A DNA stretch of 64,000 nt from Escherichia coli (lineage in GTDB: Bacteria; Pseudomonadota; Gammaproteobacteria; Enterobacterales; Enterobacteriaceae), in NCBI RefSeq assembly GCF_017348835.2, contig NZ_CP071375.1; one strand, written 5' to 3'. Positions 14,172 through 57,091 of this stretch are shown in pieces. Position numbers and translations under genes: made by a program. Within the stretch, counting starts at the first letter, position 1, and each line of letters opens with the position of its first letter. The notes beneath the pieces were generated by a model. The model did not search any database. It was not told the DNA's origin and saw nothing but the letters and a program-made list of their open reading frames with translations.

Positions 14172-14694
14172 ATGTCTGACCATAATCCACTGACATTAAA
14201 ACTGAATCTGCGGGAAAAAATCGCCTATGGTATGGGCGACGTCGGTTCGAATTTAATGCTTAGCATCGGTACTCTGTATCTCCTCAAATTTTATACCGAT
14301 GAATTAGGGATGCCAGCTTACTATGGCGGGATTATCTTTCTGGTGGCGAAGTTTTTTACCGCGTTTACCGATATGCTCACCGGATTTTTACTCGACTCGC
14401 GGAAAAATATTGGGCCTAAAGGCAAATTTCGTCCCTTTATTTTATATGCAGCGGTTCCGGCGGCGTTAATTGCAACGCTCCAGTTTATCGCCACCACCTT
14501 TAGTTTGCCGGTTAAAACGACGATTGCCACCGCGCTGTTTATGATGTTTGGACTTTCATACAGTCTGATGAACTGCTCGTATGGTGCGATGATCCCGGCA
14601 ATTACCAAAAACCCGAATGAGCGCGCGCAGCTCGCGGCTTACCGCCAGGGTGGTGCAACCATAGGGCTATTGATTTGTACCGTGGCGTTTATTC
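14172..14694 (+). pseudogene. yihO: yihO (GPH-family sulfoquinovose transporter) 5' fragment, truncated after about 174 codons by IS629
   Basis: SD aaggag then ATG 14172; paralogous to yihP over the N-terminus; reading frame runs into the IS629 left inverted repeat at 14695 and terminates inside the IS. Confidence 0.8.
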
Positions 14695-14748: not shown

Positions 14749-15075
14749 ATGACTAAAAATACTCGTTTTTCCCCCGAAGTCCGTCAGCGGGCGATTCGTA
14801 TGGTTCTGGAAAGTCAGGATGAATATGACTCACAGTGGGCGGCAATTTGTTCCATTGCCCCAAAGATTGGCTGTACGCCGGAGACTCTGCGTGTCTGGGT
14901 TCGCCAGCATGAGCGGGATACCGGGAGTGGTGATGGTGGACTCACCACCGCTGAACGTCAGCGTCTGAAAGAGCTGGAACGTGAAAATCGTGAACTGCGC
15001 CGCAGTAACGATATCCTTCGCCAGGCTTCCGCTTATTTTGCGAAGGCGGAGTTCGACCGCCTCTGGAAAAAATAA
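14749..15075 (+). CDS. IS629 transposase OrfA (HTH/leucine-zipper component)
   Basis: 108-aa [26 protein letters not shown]... recognised as IS629/IS1203-type OrfA; A6 run 15067-15072 is the likely programmed -1 frameshift site. Confidence 0.85.
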
Positions 15076-15962
15076 TGCCACTGCTGGATAAGCTGCGTGA
15101 GCAGTACGGGGGCGGACCGGTATGCAGCGAACTGCATATTGCCCCGTCAACGTATTACCATTGTCAGCAACAGCGACATCATCCGGATAAACGCAGTGCC
15201 CGTGCGCAGCACGATGACTGGCTGAAGAAAGAGATACAGCGCGTATACGATGAAAATCACCAGGTATACGGTGTGCGTAAAGTCTGGCGTCAGTTGTTAC
15301 GGGAAGGTATCAGAGTGGCCAGATGCACTGTGGCACGTCTCATGGCAGTTATGGGACTTGCCGGTGTTCTCCGGGGTAAAAAGGTCCGCACTACCGTCAG
15401 CCGGAAAGCCGTTGCCGCATGCGACCGCGTAAACCGTCAGTTCGTGGCAGAACGTCCAGACCAGTTGTGGGTGGCTGATTTTACCTGGGTAAGCACATGG
15501 CAGGGCTTCGTTTATGTGGCGTTCATCATTGATGTGTTCGCCGGATACATCGTGGGATGGCAGGTCTCATCATCCATGGAAACAACATTCGTGCTGGATG
15601 CACTGGAGCAGGCGTTGTGGGCCCGTCGGCCGTCCGGCACAATCCATCACAGTGATAAAGGTTCTCAGTATGTATCGCTGGCCTACACGCAGCGGCTTAA
15701 GGAAGCCGGATTACTGGCATCAACAGGGAGTACTGGCGACTCGTATGACAACGCGATGGCTGAGAGCATCAATGGTCTTTACAAAGCGGAGGTAATACAC
15801 CGTAAGAGCTGGAAAAACCGGACAGAAGTGGAACTGGCCACACTAACGTGGGTGGACTGGTATAACAATCGACGATTGCTGGAAAGGCTGGGCCATATTC
15901 CTCCGGCAGAAGCAGAAAAAGCTTATTATGCTTCCATCGGAAATAATGATCTGGCAGCCTGA
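15075..15962 (+). CDS. IS629 transposase OrfB (DDE catalytic domain)
   Basis: 295-aa ORF in -1 frame relative to OrfA; ATG overlaps OrfA stop (TAATG). Confidence 0.85.
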   Translation: MPLLDKLREQYGGGPVCSELHIAPSTYYHCQQQRHHPDKRSARAQHDDWLKKEIQRVYDENHQVYGVRKVWRQLLREGIRVARCTVARLMAVMGLAGVLRGKKVRTTVSRKAVAACDRVNRQFVAERPDQLWVADFTWVSTWQGFVYVAFIIDVFAGYIVGWQVSSSMETTFVLDALEQALWARRPSGTIHHSDKGSQYVSLAYTQRLKEAGLLASTGSTGDSYDNAMAESINGLYKAEVIHRKSWKNRTEVELATLTWVDWYNNRRLLERLGHIPPAEAEKAYYASIGNNDLAA

Positions 15963-19008: not shown

Positions 19009-22000
19009 TTACACCTTTTCCACATTCACAAGGAAGGACTTAAACTCCGGCGTCTGCGTGTTCGCATCACCAACGAATGGCGTTAACGTATTGGCAATAA
19101 AGCCTTTTTTAGCTACGCCTTCATAGCCCCAGTGAATCGGAATACCGATGGTATCGATATCTTTGCCGTTCGCTTTCAGCGTGCGAATACGTTTGGTCAC
19201 CACCGCTTTGGCTTTGATATAGCCACGGTTGGAGGAGACTTTCACGGTATCGCCCTGGGCAATGCCAAGTTTATTCGCCAGCGACTCACCGATTTCCACA
19301 AACTGCTCTGGCTGCAAAATCGCGTTCAACAGCGCGTGTTTGGTCCAGTAGTGGAAGTGCTCGGTCAGACGATAGGTGGTTCCGACATACGGGAACTTAT
19401 CGGCTTTACCCAATGCTTCGGCGTCGTCTTTAAAGATTCGCGCAGCCGGGTTCGAGATAACGTTTGGATGCAGCGGGTTAGTTCCCAGCGGCGTTTCAAA
19501 CGGCTCGTAGTGTTCCGGGAACGGACCTTCCGCCATCTTATCGAGGGCAAACAGACGTCCCATGCCTTCCTGCTGCATGATAAACGGCCCGACGCCGCTG
19601 CCCGGAGGCGCTGCGCTGTAGTCCGGAATATCCCAGCCGGTCCACTTAGTGCCGTCCCATTTCAGCAACTGACGCTTCGGATCCCACGGGTTACCCTGCG
19701 GATCTGCGGAGGCGCGGTTATACAGAATGCGGCGGTTAAGCGGCCATGCCCATGCCCAGCCCAGTGTGTTACCGAGGCCAGACGGATCGGCGTTATCACG
19801 GCGTGCCATCTGGTTGCCTTCCGGCGTCCAGCTACCGGCGAAAATCCAGCAGCCACAGGAGGTTGTACCATCATCGCGCAGTTGGGCGAACGAGCTAAGT
19901 TGTTGGCCTTTCTTGACGATAACCGCACCGGTTGCCGGATCGGTAATATCGGCCAGCGCCTTACCGTTGCTCTCCATCGCTACTTCTTCCGACTTCGGCT
20001 CATGCGGAATGGCGTAGTTCCATGTCATGTTCAGCACCTGGTCCGGGTTCGCGCCACCCTGTTCGGCATACATCTTGCGCAAGCGCAGGAAGATACCGGA
20101 GAGGATCTCGCCGTCAGTCAGCGCAATCCCCGGGGCGTCCGCACCTTTCCAGTGCCACTGTAACCAGCGACCTGAGTTAACGATTGAACCGTTCTCTTCT
20201 GCGAAGCAGGTCGATGGCAGACGGAACACTTCGGTCTGGATCTTCGACGAGTCAACTTCGTTCAGCTCACCGTGGTTCTGCCAGAAGTTAGAGGTTTCAG
20301 TGTTCAGCGGGTCGATGGTGACGAGGAACTTCAGTTTCGACAGACAACCGATCACTTTGTTTTTGTTCGGGAATGAGGCAACAGGGTTAAAGCCCTGGCA
20401 GATATAGCCATTGACCTTGCCCTCTTTCATCATCTCGAAGTATTGCAGGACGTCGTAGCCTTTATCCCACTTCGGCAACCAGTCAAAGCCCCAGCTATTT
20501 TCCGCCGTCGCTTTATCACCAAAGAAGGCCTTCATCATGGAGACGAAGAATTTCGGGTAGTTGCCCCAGTAGTTTACCTGGCCTTCCAGCAGCGGTTTTG
20601 GCGTGTTGGCGGTAAGGTAGGTTTGCAGATCGGTCTGCTTCTCGCTTGGCAGCGTCATGTAACCCGGCAGGCTCTGCGACAGCAGCCCCAGGTCCGTCAG
20701 CCCCTGAATATTGGAGTGACCGCGCAGGGCGTTAACGCCGCCGCCTGCCATCCCCATATTGCCGAGCAGCAGCTGGATCATCGCCATCGTACGAATGTTC
20801 TGCGCACCAACGGAGTGTTGCGTCCAGCCGAGGGCATACAGGAACGAGGCAGTTTTATCGTGAGCACTGGTTTCTGCGATGTATTCGCTGACTTTCAGGA
20901 ACGCGTCTTTTGGCGTACCACAGATGTTTTCAACCACATCTGGCGTGTAGCGGGAAACGTGCTGTTTCAGCAAGTTCCACACGCAGCGCGGATGTTGCAG
21001 CGTGGTATCGCGTTTGGCGAAGCCGTTTTCGTCCAGTTCGTAAGTCCAGGAGGATTTATCGTACTTGCGTTTTTCCGCGTCATAGCCGGTGAACAGGCCA
21101 TCTTCAAAGCCGTAATCCTCACGCACGATCAGGCTGGCGTTGGTATAGGCTTCGGTGTATTCGCGGTTGAATTTTTCATTGTTCAGCAGGTACAGCAATA
21201 CGCCTGACAGGAAAGCAATGTCAGTACCGGAACGAATAGGGGCATAGTAGTCAGCCACCGCCGCCGTACGCGTAAAGCGAGGATCGATCACAATCAGCTT
21301 CGCGCCATTGTGAATTTTGGCTTCCATCGCCCAGCGGAACCCGACCGGGTGAGCTTCAGCGGCGTTACCGCCCATCACCACGACGAGGTTGGCGTTCTTG
21401 ATGTCGACCCAGTGGTTGGTCATCGCACCGCGACCAAATGTTGGAGCAAGACTTGCTACCGTTGGTCCGTGTCAGACACGCGCCTGGTTGTCGACCGCGA
21501 GCATACCCAGCGCGCGGGAGAATTTTTGCGTTAAATAGCCGGTTTCGTTACTCGACGCGGAAGCACACAGCATCCCGGTGGAGAGCCAGCGGTTAACAGT
21601 CACGCCTTCGGCGTTTTGCGCAATGTAGTTAGCATCGCGGTCTTCTTTCATCAGTTTGGCGATGCGATCAAACGCCTCTTCCCAACTGATTTGCTGCCAT
21701 TTATCAGAACCTGGCGCACGGTATTCCGGAAACTTCAGACGGCTTTCGGAGTGGATGAAATCCACCAGGCCAGCGCCTTTCGGACAAAGTGCACCGCGGT
21801 TGACCGGGTGATCCGGATCGCCTTCGATATGGAAGATAGATGCTTTGGCGTTTTTTGCTCCGTCACCGAGGCTGTACATCAACAGCCCACAGCCTACGGA
21901 ACAATAGGTGCAGGTATTACGGGTTTCGCGGGTGCGCAGCAGTTTATACTGCCGGGTTTCCGCGAGTGCTACGCTGGGTGCAAAACCCAGTGCCGCTGCC

Positions 22001-22059
22001 GTGGTGCCTGCCATACCGCCAGCGCAGATCTTAAAGAACTGCCTTCTGCTGACCTGCAT
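19009..22059 (-). CDS. fdoG: formate dehydrogenase-O catalytic subunit (selenocysteine-containing, molybdopterin)
   Basis: Two same-frame ORFs (21472-22059 and 19009-21423) separated only by an in-frame TGA at 21472-21474 = Sec codon; N-terminal Tat signal RRQFFK. Confidence 0.92.
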
Positions 22060-28613: not shown

Positions 28614-29060
28614 TTATGAGCTGAGGGTTTGATTTAACAAGGCAAGCACCTGGTCGGCGTCGCCCTGTTGCAGTTGATGAATAAAATCCTGGTGGATAAT
28701 TTTGCGACACAGTGTGCCGATGATTTTGACCTGATCCTCTTCGCCGCTTTGCGGCACGCCGAGGCAAATCCAACAATTGACGTCTTCGCCATCGCTGGTT
28801 TTCCAGTCAATAGCCTGCGCTTTGCGGGCGAATAACACGAACGGTTGTTTAACGCAGGCGCTTTTACCGTGCGGCACGGCGACACCGGAACCAAAACCGG
28901 TAGAGTGCATTTTTTCGCGCAGCAGCAGGGTTTGCAGGAACTGGTGTGAGTCGGTGATAAAACCGTTTTGTAACGCTATTGTCGCCAACTGCTTCAGAAC
29001 GGAATAAGTGCCATTGCCCTGAATATTCAGGTCAATACAGCTTGCAGTAAGAGCTGCCAT
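28614..29060 (-). CDS. frvA: PTS fructose-like EIIA component
   Basis: 148-aa ORF, recognised FrvA. Confidence 0.88.
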   Translation of the reverse strand: MAALTASCIDLNIQGNGTYSVLKQLATIALQNGFITDSHQFLQTLLLREKMHSTGFGSGVAVPHGKSACVKQPFVLFARKAQAIDWKTSDGEDVNCWICLGVPQSGEEDQVKIIGTLCRKIIHQDFIHQLQQGDADQVLALLNQTLSS

Positions 29061-29537
29061 TAATCGGACTCCATGAAAAAATATTTACGTTAATTGTAAT
29101 AGCGGGGCGGGTTTGTGATGAGCGCGGATATGTCGTGAAGTCGTGACAATATAAAGCAGAGTGAAGGATAAATTTTGCGGCGTAAGGCACATATTAGTAG
29201 GTAAAATAAATCTTGTGAATAAAAAATCATTCTTTAATGATTTTGTGAATGTTTAAATGTCTCAGATAATTTGTCTAAACGTTATTTATATTTGTGGCTT
29301 ATGAGTCAGCGTGAATCATATCTAATATTTTTTACGATATTTAGTTAAAAACGGCACTATTGTTATATTCCTCACGTTCCAGGAAATCAGCGGATTTACT
29401 CATATTATGCGGCGGGATACTATCCATCGGCCTGCTGAAGTTGGATTAAAAATTCGAAAGTGCACACCTTATATTTCTCTATATACGTATTCCTTTTGGA
29501 AAGCGTAGGGTCTCCTTTATTTCAGGGAACGTAAATA

Positions 29538-30932
29538 ATGAAAAAATCGACATTATCTTTAGCCATCGGTTTATTATTGGCATGTAGTACCGGTATGGCA
29601 AAAACACAGCATTTAACGCTGGAACAACGCATGGCATTGCTGGAAGAACGCCTGGAAGCGGCAGAAATGCGGGCGGCAAAAGCAGAGAGCCAGGTTAAAC
29701 AGCTGCAGACACAACAAGCCGCTGAGATCCGCGAAATTAAGGCCGCTCAGGGCAATACGCCGGTAAATGGACAGGCAACGGCGGAATCTGCAAAGAAAAA
29801 TGCCACCTCACCTAATCTTTTGCTTTCAGGTTATGGCGATTTAAAAATCTACGGCGACGTAGAATTTAATATGGATGCGGAAAGTAATCATGGCCTGCTG
29901 GCAATGACCAACGCTGATGTGAATAGCGATCCCACTAATGAGCAGTGGAATCTCAATGGTCGTATTCTGTTAGGTTTTGATGGTATGCGAAAACTGGATA
30001 ATGGCTATTTCGCCGGGTTCTCCGCACAACCGCTGGGGGATATGCACGGTTCAGTAAATATCGATGATGCGGTATTCTTCTTTGGCAAAGAAAACGACTG
30101 GAAGGTCAAAGTAGGCCGTTTTGAAGCCTACGATATGTTCCCGTTGAATCAGGATACCTTTGTTGAACATTCCGGTAATACTGCGAACGATCTTTATGAC
30201 GATGGCAGCGGTTATATCTATATGATGAAAGAGGGCCGCGGGCGTTCTAACGCTGGCGGTAATTTCCTCGTCAGCAAACAACTCGATAACTGGTATTTTG
30301 AATTAAACACGTTACTTGAAGACGGAACATCTTTATATAATGACGGTAATTATCATGGACGTGATATGGAGCAGCAGAAAAATGTTGCTTATCTGCGCCC
30401 AGTAATTGCCTGGTCGCCGACGGAAGAATTCACCGTTTCCGCAGCGATGGAAACGAACGTGGTAAATAATGCTTATGGTTATACCGATAGCAAGGGTAAT
30501 TTTGTCGATCAGTCCGATCGTACCGGCTATGGTATGAGCATGACCTAGAATGGCTTGAAAACGGATCCGGACAATGGCATTGTGGTTAATCTTAATACCG
30601 CCTATTTAGATGCTAATAATGAGAAAGATTTCACTGCCGGGATTAACGCGCTGTGGAAACGTTTCGAGCTCGGTTATATCTACGCGCACAATAAGATTGA
30701 TGAATTCAGCGGTGTAGTTTGTGATAACGACTGCTGGATTGATGATGAAGGGACGTACACCATTCACACCATTCATGCGTCTTATCAGTTCGCTAATGTG
30801 ATGGATATGGAGAACTTTAATATTTACCTCGGGACGTATTACTCCATTCTGGATAGCGACGGCGATAAAAAACACGGTGATGATACTGATGACCGTTACG
30901 GCGCACGCGTTCGCTTTAAATACTTCTTCTGA
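29538..30932 (+). pseudogene. outer-membrane glycoporin-like gene (signal peptide, N-terminal coiled coil, beta-barrel, C-terminal Phe) interrupted by one in-frame amber codon; possibly RafY-family
   Basis: ORFs 29538-30548 and 30555-30932 are in the same frame, separated only by TAG at 30546-30548; total 464 codons; signal peptide MKKSTLSLAIGLLLACSTGMA; terminal ...RFKYFF. Confidence 0.7.
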
Positions 30933-30972
30933 TGAAGGCGCGGTGCTGGATATTTTCCGGCACCGCAACTCA

Positions 30973-31287
30973 TTAAGGCAGGTAAAACACTTCTTGCAGC
31001 TCGCTACTCACCGGGCTGTTATCCGGGTTAGCGGGCATAACATCGGTCATATATTTCCACCAACGTTGGCAAACATCAGTACTGGCAACCGCATTCCAGC
31101 GTTCTTCAGATTCAATCTCTACCATGGCAAACAGCAGATTACGCGCTTTGTCGAGATAGATGGCGTAGTTATGCGCACCGTGAGATTTCAGCACTGCTTC
31201 CAGTTCCGGCCAGATGGGATTATGCCGACGCTGATACTCTTCGTGGGCGTCGGGGTTTACCTGCATGACAAAGGCTTTGCGGATCAT
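30973..31287 (-). CDS. rhaM: L-rhamnose mutarotase
   Basis: 104-aa ORF, recognised RhaM (YiiL). Confidence 0.9.
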
Positions 31288-31296
31288 GTTTGCTCC

Positions 31297-32121
31297 TTAC
31301 AGCGCCAGCGCACTGGCGAGTGGTGTAACGCCGAAACGCTGGCCGAGCGCTATCAACTCTTCACGGCTTATAGTCTGTTTCATGCCGCCCATCGAATAAA
31401 CCTTCACTAATACTTGTGCTGATTTTTCTGCGGTGTCGATTAAACCGAATGTTTCATCCAGCGTCGGTCCGGAACCGAACACACCGTGGAAGGGCCACAA
31501 CACCAGCGAATGTTTCTGCATCTCTTGTGCGGTCGCCTGGCCGATTTCGTCCGTGCCGGGCACCATCCACGGCAGAATGCCAACGCCATCCGGGAATACC
31601 ACCAGACACTCGGTGCTGCCTTCCCACAGTTGGCGAGTAAAGACCGCGGTGTCGTTTTCCAGTACATAGGTGAGGGCGATCAGGTTGGTGGCGTGGCAGT
31701 GCATGATCACCCGATCTTTACTGTTGGTGGCTTTAATGCGCTCGCAGTGGGAAAGGAAGTGAGCCGGAAGTTCAGAAGTGGGAACGGCTTCGTTGGTTAA
31801 CCCCCAGAGAATATGGTAGCCCGCGCCATCGCTGTCGACTTTTACGACGCCTAAGTTAGCTGCAGGATCGAGCTGGACGTTACGGAAGAATTTGCCGGAG
31901 CCGGTGACAATAAACGGCGTATTTGCCAGTAAAGGCATGGGCTGGCTGAGCGGAATATAGCGCGGTTGTGGGTGGAAGTTGTCGTGATAAAGCGCGATAT
32001 CGGCGTCATCCAGGCGCAGCGTCAGGTTGCCGCCGTTGCGCTCGTCCCAGCCTTTCAGCCAGGCATCGGTGGTGGCTTTGATCATTCCCTGGACAAACCA
32101 GGATTGGGTAATGTTTTGCAT
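31297..32121 (-). CDS. rhaD: rhamnulose-1-phosphate aldolase
   Basis: ORF 31297-32211; start placed at [10 protein letters not shown] (274 aa). Confidence 0.9.
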
Positions 32122-32203: not shown

Positions 32204-35216
<3,013 letters not shown>

Positions 35217-56350: not shown

Positions 56351-56376
56351 AGGCGCCGCAAGGCGCCTTATTTTTT
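56351..56376 (+). terminator. zapB rho-independent terminator
   Basis: aggcgccgcaaggcgcct stem-loop followed by T6 run; stop codon of the convergent islet ORF (56375-56377) lies in the T-run. Confidence 0.7.
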
Positions 56377-57091
56377 ACTTCACTGTATTTTTAGCAGACA
56401 ACATAATCTCCATCGCCTGTTGGCGATATTTATCTGCCGTATCTGGCTCCATTAATGCAATGATCCCCACAGCCCTGGGGGTGTCTTCAAGATAAACACT
56501 GATGGTTCTTTTCTGCTGACCATCAAAATTTATCAACACATCCTGATACTTACAGGTGAAATGTTTGGCATTACAATCATGAAACTGGAAGGTTTCTTCA
56601 TTGTATTGATCCTTGAGATTGTCTCGCTGCATCTTCTTTAACTCTTCCAGCGAGTCATCGGCGCTACGTCCTGCGGGCAGGCGGAAAGCAGAAATAAAGA
56701 CGCTATTATCTTCACTTCTTATATCAATGGTTTTATCAGTACTAATAGAAACCGTATTCCAGTGTCGGTTTGGGACAGTCACGGAAATAGCTGCCTTCTC
56801 AAACGTATAGTGCCACGGGGTGAACAGACGAAACGTATTGCCGACGTTGGATAAAAGCAGGACTCCCAATACCCAACAGCACCCGCGAGTAAAACTGGCG
56901 AAGTTACGCGTTTTTTTAGTGAATGTGCACAGAATACCTGACACAAGCACGGGAAGTAATAACGGCCCAAGAAGTACTGAACCGATATACTCGCCAACCA
57001 TCCCAGGATCTCCAGTAAGCAAGTTACTGTGCTGAAGATGACTAAGAAAAATAGTTATTATCCATAGTATTAATAAGATAACGTATCTCAT
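56375..57091 (-). CDS. hypothetical membrane-anchored protein, islet paralog B (3 N-terminal TM helices plus about 140-aa soluble domain)
   Basis: 238-aa ORF in AT-rich DNA; shares motifs with the upstream ORF (TVTVPxxxW, C-x6-C-(A/K)-YQ, ...MLSA(K/R) C-terminus); no family recognised. Confidence 0.6.
   Translation of the reverse strand: MRYVILLILWIITIFLSHLQHSNLLTGDPGMVGEYIGSVLLGPLLLPVLVSGILCTFTKKTRNFASFTRGCCWVLGVLLLSNVGNTFRLFTPWHYTFEKAAISVTVPNRHWNTVSISTDKTIDIRSEDNSVFISAFRLPAGRSADDSLEELKKMQRDNLKDQYNEETFQFHDCNAKHFTCKYQDVLINFDGQQKRTISVYLEDTPRAVGIIALMEPDTADKYRQQAMEIMLSAKNTVK

Follow-up and report, generated by a model that had tools for sequence, protein, structure and literature searches.

Two questions are raised by a porin-like reading frame that is cut by a single amber codon and lies between frvA and the rhamnose gene rhaM: is the gene dead, misread or still expressed in its strain, and does its neighbourhood tell us what it transports or once transported? 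We address both for a stretch of 64,000 nucleotides from Escherichia coli (contig NZ_CP071375.1), called the window below, in which positions are counted from the first letter.

The interrupted frame and its neighbours

The original prediction of a 464-codon frame, split by one amber codon with both halves in register, is borne out by the sequence and by the list of open reading frames. The single frame runs on the + strand from 29538 to 30932 with one internal TAG at 30546-30548; the distance between 29538 and 30546 is 1008 nucleotides, i.e., 336 x 3, so that both halves are in the same frame. In the ORF list, the ATG at 29538 opens an ORF of 336 codons terminated by the TAG (29538-30548); 3' of it, the porin frame runs on for 127 codons to the TGA at 30930-30932, and the list gives a 125-codon ORF there. 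The neighbours are those that had been claimed, frvA on one side and rhaM on the other. The features of the locus are listed below by coordinates and strand, with the evidence for each in brackets.

28614-29060, - strand: frvA, upstream of the porin gene and divergent from it (ORF list)
29061-29537, no strand: frvA/porin divergent intergenic region, 477 bp (sequence)
29524-29528, + strand: Shine-Dalgarno-like AGGGA, 9 nt 5' of the porin ATG (read from the sequence)
29538-30932, + strand: rafY2-type "carbohydrate porin" gene, an amber-interrupted pseudogene in this strain (translation; Pfam Porin_8; intact CDS in PE164 and BL21)
29538-29600, + strand: putative signal peptide, residues 1-21 (MKKSTLSLAIGLLLACSTGMA / KTQ) (sequence and homologue consensus)
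29619-29747, + strand: predicted helical extension at the N-terminus, periplasmic and possibly a coiled coil, residues 28-70 (AF2, weak Pfam match, conservation)
29847-30929, + strand: Porin_8 (RafY) beta-barrel domain, residues 104-464, about 16 predicted strands (Pfam, AF2, fold neighbours)
30546-30548, + strand: amber codon TAG in place of TGG (Trp337), the causal change being G to A at 30547 (comparison with PE164 and BL21)
30549-30929, + strand: orphaned 3' part, codons 338-464, comprising the final ~6 predicted strands and ending in ...RFKYFF (PE164 comparison, AF2)
30940-30966, no strand: GC-rich inverted repeat GCGGTGCTGG / CCGGCACCGC with a 7-nt loop, between the convergent porin and rhaM stop codons (sequence)
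30973-31287, - strand: rhaM, downstream of the porin gene and convergent with it (ORF list)

The inverted repeat may form a hairpin at the transcript end; as it has no T-run, it is not a canonical intrinsic terminator, and it was not called by a terminator scan of 28950-31100. A promoter scan of the same interval returned consensus-level matches only, in a number no higher than in shuffled sequence, and a loose search for CRP sites upstream of the porin gene gave matches only with 2-3 mismatches. When the upstream regions from E. coli, Citrobacter, Klebsiella and plasmid rafY were aligned, the sole conserved stretch was a TTTAT-T..GG block around the ribosome-binding site, so that no common regulatory element can be defined.

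A porin of the RafY family

The read-through protein matches the Pfam family Porin_8 (PF16966, "Porin-like glycoporin RafY") with residues 104-464, over the full length of the model (1-372 of 372) and at E = 7.2e-154, which sets the frame far beyond a chance ORF; the two halves read together belong to this one family rather than to unrelated proteins. Over 450 aa, the protein shares 79% identity (86% positives) with the plasmid RafY encoded on NZ_CP150018.1. RafY is family 1.B.15 of the TC system, with 16 predicted strands and oligosaccharides as substrates (TCDB-based work, PMC4827864), and the chromosomal gene has been named rafY2 in a comparative paper on O157:H7, a lineage that has rafY2 without rafRABD (PMC4809568). 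An NCBIfam scan of the read-through protein assigned no family; PGAP must have taken the name "carbohydrate porin" from a rule other than the NCBIfam families scanned.

The porin hallmarks on which the original prediction had been built are all present: a signal-peptide-like N-terminus, the quoted peptide LEQRMALLEERLEAAEMRAAKAESQVKQLQ, which corresponds to residues 28-57, and a C-terminal Phe, the protein ending in ...RVRFKYFF. Under the A-x-A type rule for signal peptidase I, cleavage would take place after residue 21; the homologue consensus at the N-terminus reads MKK..LALAIGLLL.AN...AKT. The N-terminal extension gives a weak match to Pfam PF11471 (Sugarporin_N; E = 0.06, residues 27-54), a family whose precomputed annotation is present on several of the porin homologues, and nine of its residues (E29, R31, E36, R38, L39, E43, R45, A49 and E50) are invariant in 32 homologues.

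An AF2 model built on the homologue alignment (mean pLDDT 61, pTM 0.59, barrel strands at about 70-85) gives the read-through porin a long N-terminal helix at residues 28-70, with low confidence, and about 16 strands, a count that is approximate as the confidence of the model is only moderate. Its Foldseek matches are mainly 16-stranded porins with E-values of about 1e-8 (the Rhodopseudomonas blastica porin, OprB, OmpF/OmpC and OmpU), in agreement with the beta-barrel that had been predicted; LamB and ScrY are both missing among the 50 matches listed. Neither does the barrel match the LamB family PF02264 in Pfam at E <= 10. Thus, of the RafY/ScrY-type affiliation proposed in the original prediction, the RafY part stands, through Porin_8 and the identity to plasmid RafY, and the ScrY part does not, save for the weak resemblance of the N-terminal extension. 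A sequence search of the PDB with the porin returned unrelated enzymes, the best at E = 0.69, and there appears to be no solved structure for the RafY family.

The features of an outer-membrane barrel, i.e., a signal peptide, about 16 strands and an aromatic C-terminal signal with Phe as its last residue, are found together in the read-through frame only. In this genome, the uninterrupted frame of a RafY-family member is lost with the TAG at codon 337, and residues 338-464 are gone. Separate expression of the downstream ORF of 116-125 aa was considered and rejected, as a product with no signal peptide could not reach the outer membrane or complement the loss. The frame is best annotated as one rafY2 "carbohydrate porin" pseudogene, rather than as separate ORFs of 336 aa and 116-125 aa.

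Origin and consequence of the amber codon

The window differs from E. coli PE164 (NZ_CP114128.1; a pig isolate from Nanjing) at 4 positions in 64,000 bases: 15112 and 15845, both inside the same IS3-family element; 30547, in the porin gene; and 35014, in the rhaS-rhaB intergenic region. Position 30547, where the window has A and both PE164 and BL21 have G, is the sole difference from PE164 within the porin gene and makes TAG out of TGG (Trp337); among the ancestral codons that had been proposed for a lineage-specific stop (CAG, TGG or TAC), TGG is, thus, the one found. The orphaned 3' part carries no further change relative to the intact PE164 allele, which fits a very recent event. Position 35014 was looked at as a possible second lineage-specific mutation of the rha region and discarded: the window base is the common one, matched exactly by at least 2,448 genomes, and it is the PE164 base that is rarer.

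One may ask whether the stop is there at all, the gene being intact and the TAG an error of sequencing or assembly, or an artefact of a single record. Indeed, the exact 81-mer around the TAG is found in none of the 5,426 complete E. coli genomes (best match 98.8%, with one mismatch), and the closest complete genomes, PE164 and F2_81, which are essentially identical to the window over 24 kb, are both without it. The exact 336-aa product is, however, recorded on 14 contigs, which stem from several independent sequencing runs, among them SRR27418558, ERR14374684, SRR27418881, SRR33453117, DRR831788 and SRR19633709; six loci from six runs were retrieved, and the TAG is present in all six, the gene being identical to that of the window wherever the contig covers it. 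A stop that is seen on 14 contigs and in none of the 5,426 complete genomes is real and confined to one lineage, and we regard an error as extremely improbable.

The DRR831788 locus differs from the window at three flanking positions, which could reflect recombination or a chimeric assembly.

The stop being real, the original prediction had left open two fates for the gene, a recent pseudogene or expression by amber suppression only. The first has held, TGG being one step away in the near-clonal PE164; for the second, which would keep the gene functional through a suppressor tRNA or through read-through in a leaky UAG-A context, we found no evidence. It is true that nothing in the 3' part departs from the intact allele so far and that, given the effect of the fourth base on termination, stronger stop contexts than UAG-A exist. 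A very recent mutation, in a genome that is 4 SNPs per 64 kb away from an intact relative, would, however, leave the 3' part just as undegraded; there are no tRNA genes within the 64-kb window; and the common suppressors insert Gln, Tyr or Ser at a position where Trp is invariant. Amber suppressors are rare in natural isolates, and background read-through amounts to about a percent or less. We consider continued function by suppression or read-through highly unlikely. Recoding of the porin UAG was also considered and set aside; E. coli is not known to have a pyrrolysine system, and no evidence for recoding was found.

What the stop takes away can be read from the alignment and from the model. 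All 32 aligned homologues, which are 64-85% identical to the intact protein, share Trp337; in the AF2 model, this residue sits where strand 329-338 ends, within a block whose pLDDT is about 83-85. The strands that follow it (348-355, 365-373, 376-386, 406-418, 428-440 and 453-463) are all downstream of the stop, as is a conserved C-terminal block formed by R453, Y454, G455, R457, R459, F460, K461, Y462 and F464. Going by the model, the truncated product would be without more than a third of the barrel, about 6 of the 16 predicted strands. Outer-membrane beta-barrels require both a C-terminal aromatic signal and a barrel that can be closed for their assembly by BAM; since the strands and the signal are gone and BAM needs both, we infer a null allele. 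The likely course of events is as follows. Translation would stop after residue 336, and the fragment, once exported, would be without about 6 of 16 strands and without the C-terminal aromatic signal ending in Phe; it would be unable to close a barrel or to insert and would probably be degraded in the periplasm, which would leave the strain without a RafY2 pore.

We are, thus, highly confident that W337* is a recent loss-of-function allele of rafY2, an accessory chromosomal gene that encodes a RafY-family porin and that about half of E. coli carry at frvA|rhaM.

Distribution, genomic context and known systems

A megablast search with 29300-31000 found the region at a coverage of at least 80% in 2,544 of 5,426 complete E. 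coli genomes (about 47%), with a "carbohydrate porin" adjoining rhaM; in PE164 and in BL21, an intact CDS of 1,395 nt lies between frvA and rhaM. K-12 MG1655 has just a 300-bp frvA-rhaM gap and no gene, in line with the original prediction, and this K-12-type short haplotype is found in 2,814 of the 5,426 complete genomes (about 52%). Relative to K-12, positions 29211-30971 of the window are exchanged for about 150 bp of unrelated sequence, and the first ~150 bp of the 477-bp intergenic region, on the frvA side, are 85% identical to K-12. The frvA|rhaM site is, hence, a presence/absence dimorphism of roughly 47/52% in E. coli; together with the further disruptions described below, it could serve as a lineage marker.

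Where the gene is present, it seems to be maintained. Besides the nonsense change, the window gene has 15 nucleotide differences from that of BL21, with 3 amino-acid replacements, and the intact alleles look consistent with purifying selection at the sequence level. Among the full-length matches listed, all 35 are single pieces of ungapped length annotated as CDS.

The gene is also disrupted repeatedly and independently in E. coli. Many C-terminal fragments of rafY2, starting at varied points, are present in the protein database, and some of the fragment loci were read at the DNA level. One of them (L022) has a 1-bp deletion at nt 352 of the gene, another (L021) a 21-bp deletion and a 17-bp deletion, and a third (L023) has nt ~122-342 of the gene (221 bp) replaced by 100 unrelated bases; two contigs (L024 and L025) end at the same point, at about nt 533 of the gene, an arrangement consistent with the insertion of a repeat or an IS. 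L021 and L022 also lack the frv operon.

Repeated disruptions invite the idea that the loss of RafY2 is adaptive, selected for instance if phages or bacteriocins use the pore as their receptor or if toxic compounds enter through it. In addition to the TAG allele, which was sampled in several unrelated runs, there are at least four other independent disruptive alleles, and half of the species lacks the gene altogether. The neutral decay of a dispensable orphan gene, with no raf catabolic genes beside it, would, however, look alike; most carriers appear to keep the whole gene, as the full-length matches listed above indicate, and the intact alleles look purifying-selected. We know of no receptor role for RafY2. 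Selection as the cause of the repeated disruptions is an unlikely explanation, albeit one that deserves some weight, and we are equally doubtful of its extension, in which rafY2 is inactivated recurrently under selection and W337* would mark a successful clone related to the pig isolates.

We turn now to the second question. The original prediction had read the position beside rhaM and rhaBAD as a sign that the porin was once an uptake channel for rhamnose-containing oligosaccharides, a claim that finds no support beyond the adjacency itself. A present or former dedicated channel, functionally part of the rha locus, would be favoured by the age of the adjacency, as the porin gene stands beside rhaM in Escherichia, Citrobacter and Klebsiella. 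The genes rhaM-rhaD-rhaA-rhaB are, however, on the - strand and the porin gene is on the + strand; being convergent with rhaM, it cannot belong to the rhaBADM transcript, and the hairpin-like repeat lies between the two. About half of E. coli, with the K-12-type gap, have no porin beside their rha genes at all.

The comparison with relatives points elsewhere. A paralogue of the porin gene, with about 86% DNA identity, is found on plasmids and at another chromosomal site, where it is preceded by genes for a LacI-type regulator, a GH36 alpha-galactosidase, an MFS permease and a GH32 hydrolase, i.e., in the classical rafR-rafA-rafB-rafD-rafY order. In Citrobacter, the homologue (85% identity) is beside rhaM, with different genes upstream (an HTH-cupin regulator and azlCD). 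In Klebsiella sp. B345, the homologue (75% identity) is again beside rhaM, and it ends a rafR-rafA-rafB-porin cluster in the same orientation, the first three genes having homologues on the plasmid with 65, 70 and 75% identity, respectively. The Buttiauxella homologue (64% identity) follows a cluster of ABC transporter, GH13 and GH130 genes, and no rha genes are among its called neighbours. No remnants of rafA, rafB or rafD were found by tblastn in the 477 bp that precede the E. coli gene.

From these arrangements, and with the raffinose-plasmid porin as the closest characterised relative, the dedicated rhamnose channel is very unlikely. On the simplest reading of the gene orders, a raf-type alpha-galactoside cluster is where the porin next to rhaM belongs, and this cluster would have been lost, or never acquired, in E. 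coli and Citrobacter, leaving an orphan pore gene. The gene rafY2 would, thus, appear to be left over from a raf-type cluster, or to stand alone as a member of one, and to have no part in rhamnose metabolism. By analogy with plasmid RafY, intact RafY2 would most likely be a wide general-diffusion pore that speeds the entry of di- to oligosaccharides, including those of the raffinose family. A role in rhamnose metabolism does not follow from the place beside rhaM, and the comparative context points instead to the raf-type alpha-galactoside cluster.

The importance of the locus hardly extends beyond annotation. The RafY family (TC 1.B.15) has been described, the gene is annotated in thousands of E. 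coli genomes, and genes decay most commonly in just this way, by a single-base nonsense allele confined to one lineage. What the window holds is an ordinary strain-level pseudogene, recently formed from an accessory gene that is known and widely annotated.

Among known systems, the same gene at the same locus is the rafY2 or "carbohydrate porin" of O157:H7, of BL21/REL606 and of about 47% of complete genomes, with 96-99.9% DNA identity; in O157:H7 and BL21/REL606 it is intact, with TGG at codon 337, whereas the window allele has TAG. Next to it stands plasmid RafY, the porin of the plasmid-borne raffinose operon rafRABD-rafY of E. coli (pRSD2). Like the window gene, it encodes 464 aa, and it shares the same signal peptide, helical N-terminal extension, barrel layout and C-terminal ...RFKYFF. 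Unlike it, the window gene is chromosomal, sits at frvA|rhaM with no rafR, rafA, rafB or rafD alongside in E. coli, and is interrupted at Trp337. In work of 1997 and 1998, plasmid RafY reportedly complemented lamB and scrY mutants and behaved as a wide pore for general diffusion, and it is said in the 1998 study to have no sugar-binding site.

ScrY (TC 1.B.3; PF02264, with a PF11471 extension) has a periplasmic N-terminal helical extension, as is predicted for the porin, and ScrY and LamB overlap with RafY in function, namely, the facilitated diffusion of oligosaccharides; their barrel, however, has no detectable sequence homology to the porin and has 18 strands against about 16 predicted here. 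As a mutational event, W337* resembles the strain-specific nonsense pseudogenes of other accessory outer-membrane proteins of E. coli, with which it has in common a stop made by a single nucleotide, intact sister alleles and independent disruptions elsewhere.

Signal peptide and flanks of the TAG-carrying porin gene

The signal peptide of the RafY-family porin contains the string LLLAC (its L-A-C being residues 14-16, window 29577-29585), a fit to a loose lipobox pattern. This Cys is not kept in the consensus of the homologues (..LLL.AN...AKT), so lipidation seems less likely than cleavage by signal peptidase I behind residue 21.

The contig from run DRR831788, which spans the equivalent of window 29412-31461, also carries the TAG; its porin gene sequence is identical to that of the window, but three differences are found in the flanks (29515, 31191, and 31219). 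These flanks diverge from the window far more than does the near-clonal relative PE164, with its 4 differences in 64 kb. Either recombination around the TAG allele or a chimeric assembly could account for the flanking differences.

Other arrangements at or near the frvA-rhaM site

A third haplotype of this site is found in E. coli HS-02 (NZ_CP172818.1), where the region upstream of the porin is retained and the coding sequence is swapped for 589 bp (2412-3000 of the compared locus, L003). This segment, annotated with two hypothetical ORFs, is present in none of the other genomes among the 5,426 complete ones. In two further E. coli assemblies, GCA_963637135.1 (L021) and GCA_000776115.1 (L022), the frvABXR operon is wholly absent and yiiG is apparently shortened, its remnant being followed directly by a frameshifted porin gene.

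Differences between the window and PE164

Of the four positions that differ, two (15112 and 15845) fall within an IS3-family element, which adjoins a truncated transporter gene with yihP as its neighbor, according to the PE164 annotation moved to window coordinates:

14172-14693, truncated MFS transporter gene (pseudogene without its C-terminus)
14749-15962, IS3-family element with a programmed frameshift

These two differences may reflect IS copies collapsed in one of the assemblies. In the window, fdhE-yiiF is directly followed by the yihP...fabY block; compared with the K-12 map, this block is inverted, with the IS at one junction.

Another single-base difference, at 35014, falls between rhaS and rhaB, 85 nt ahead of the rhaB start codon, within or close to the stretch of the rhaBAD promoter that RhaS binds. 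The C found in the window is the common E. coli allele, the 81-mer that carries it being matched exactly in at least 2,448 genomes, and the rarer base is therefore that of PE164.

Hypothetical gene pair and formate dehydrogenase-O

Between rraA and zapB lie two genes alike in their organization, both annotated as “hypothetical protein” in PE164:

56375-57091, minus strand, hypothetical protein of 238 aa
57124-57810, minus strand, hypothetical protein of 228 aa

Both products have a hydrophobic N-terminal segment, and neither gave an NCBIfam match; the two genes are not known from the corresponding spot in K-12.

One more gene of the window is informative with regard to in-frame stop codons:

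19009-22059, minus strand, gene for the large subunit of formate dehydrogenase-O (“fdnG” in the PE164 annotation)

This gene has a true in-frame TGA that is read as selenocysteine, a useful contrast to the TAG in the porin gene, which is not recoded.
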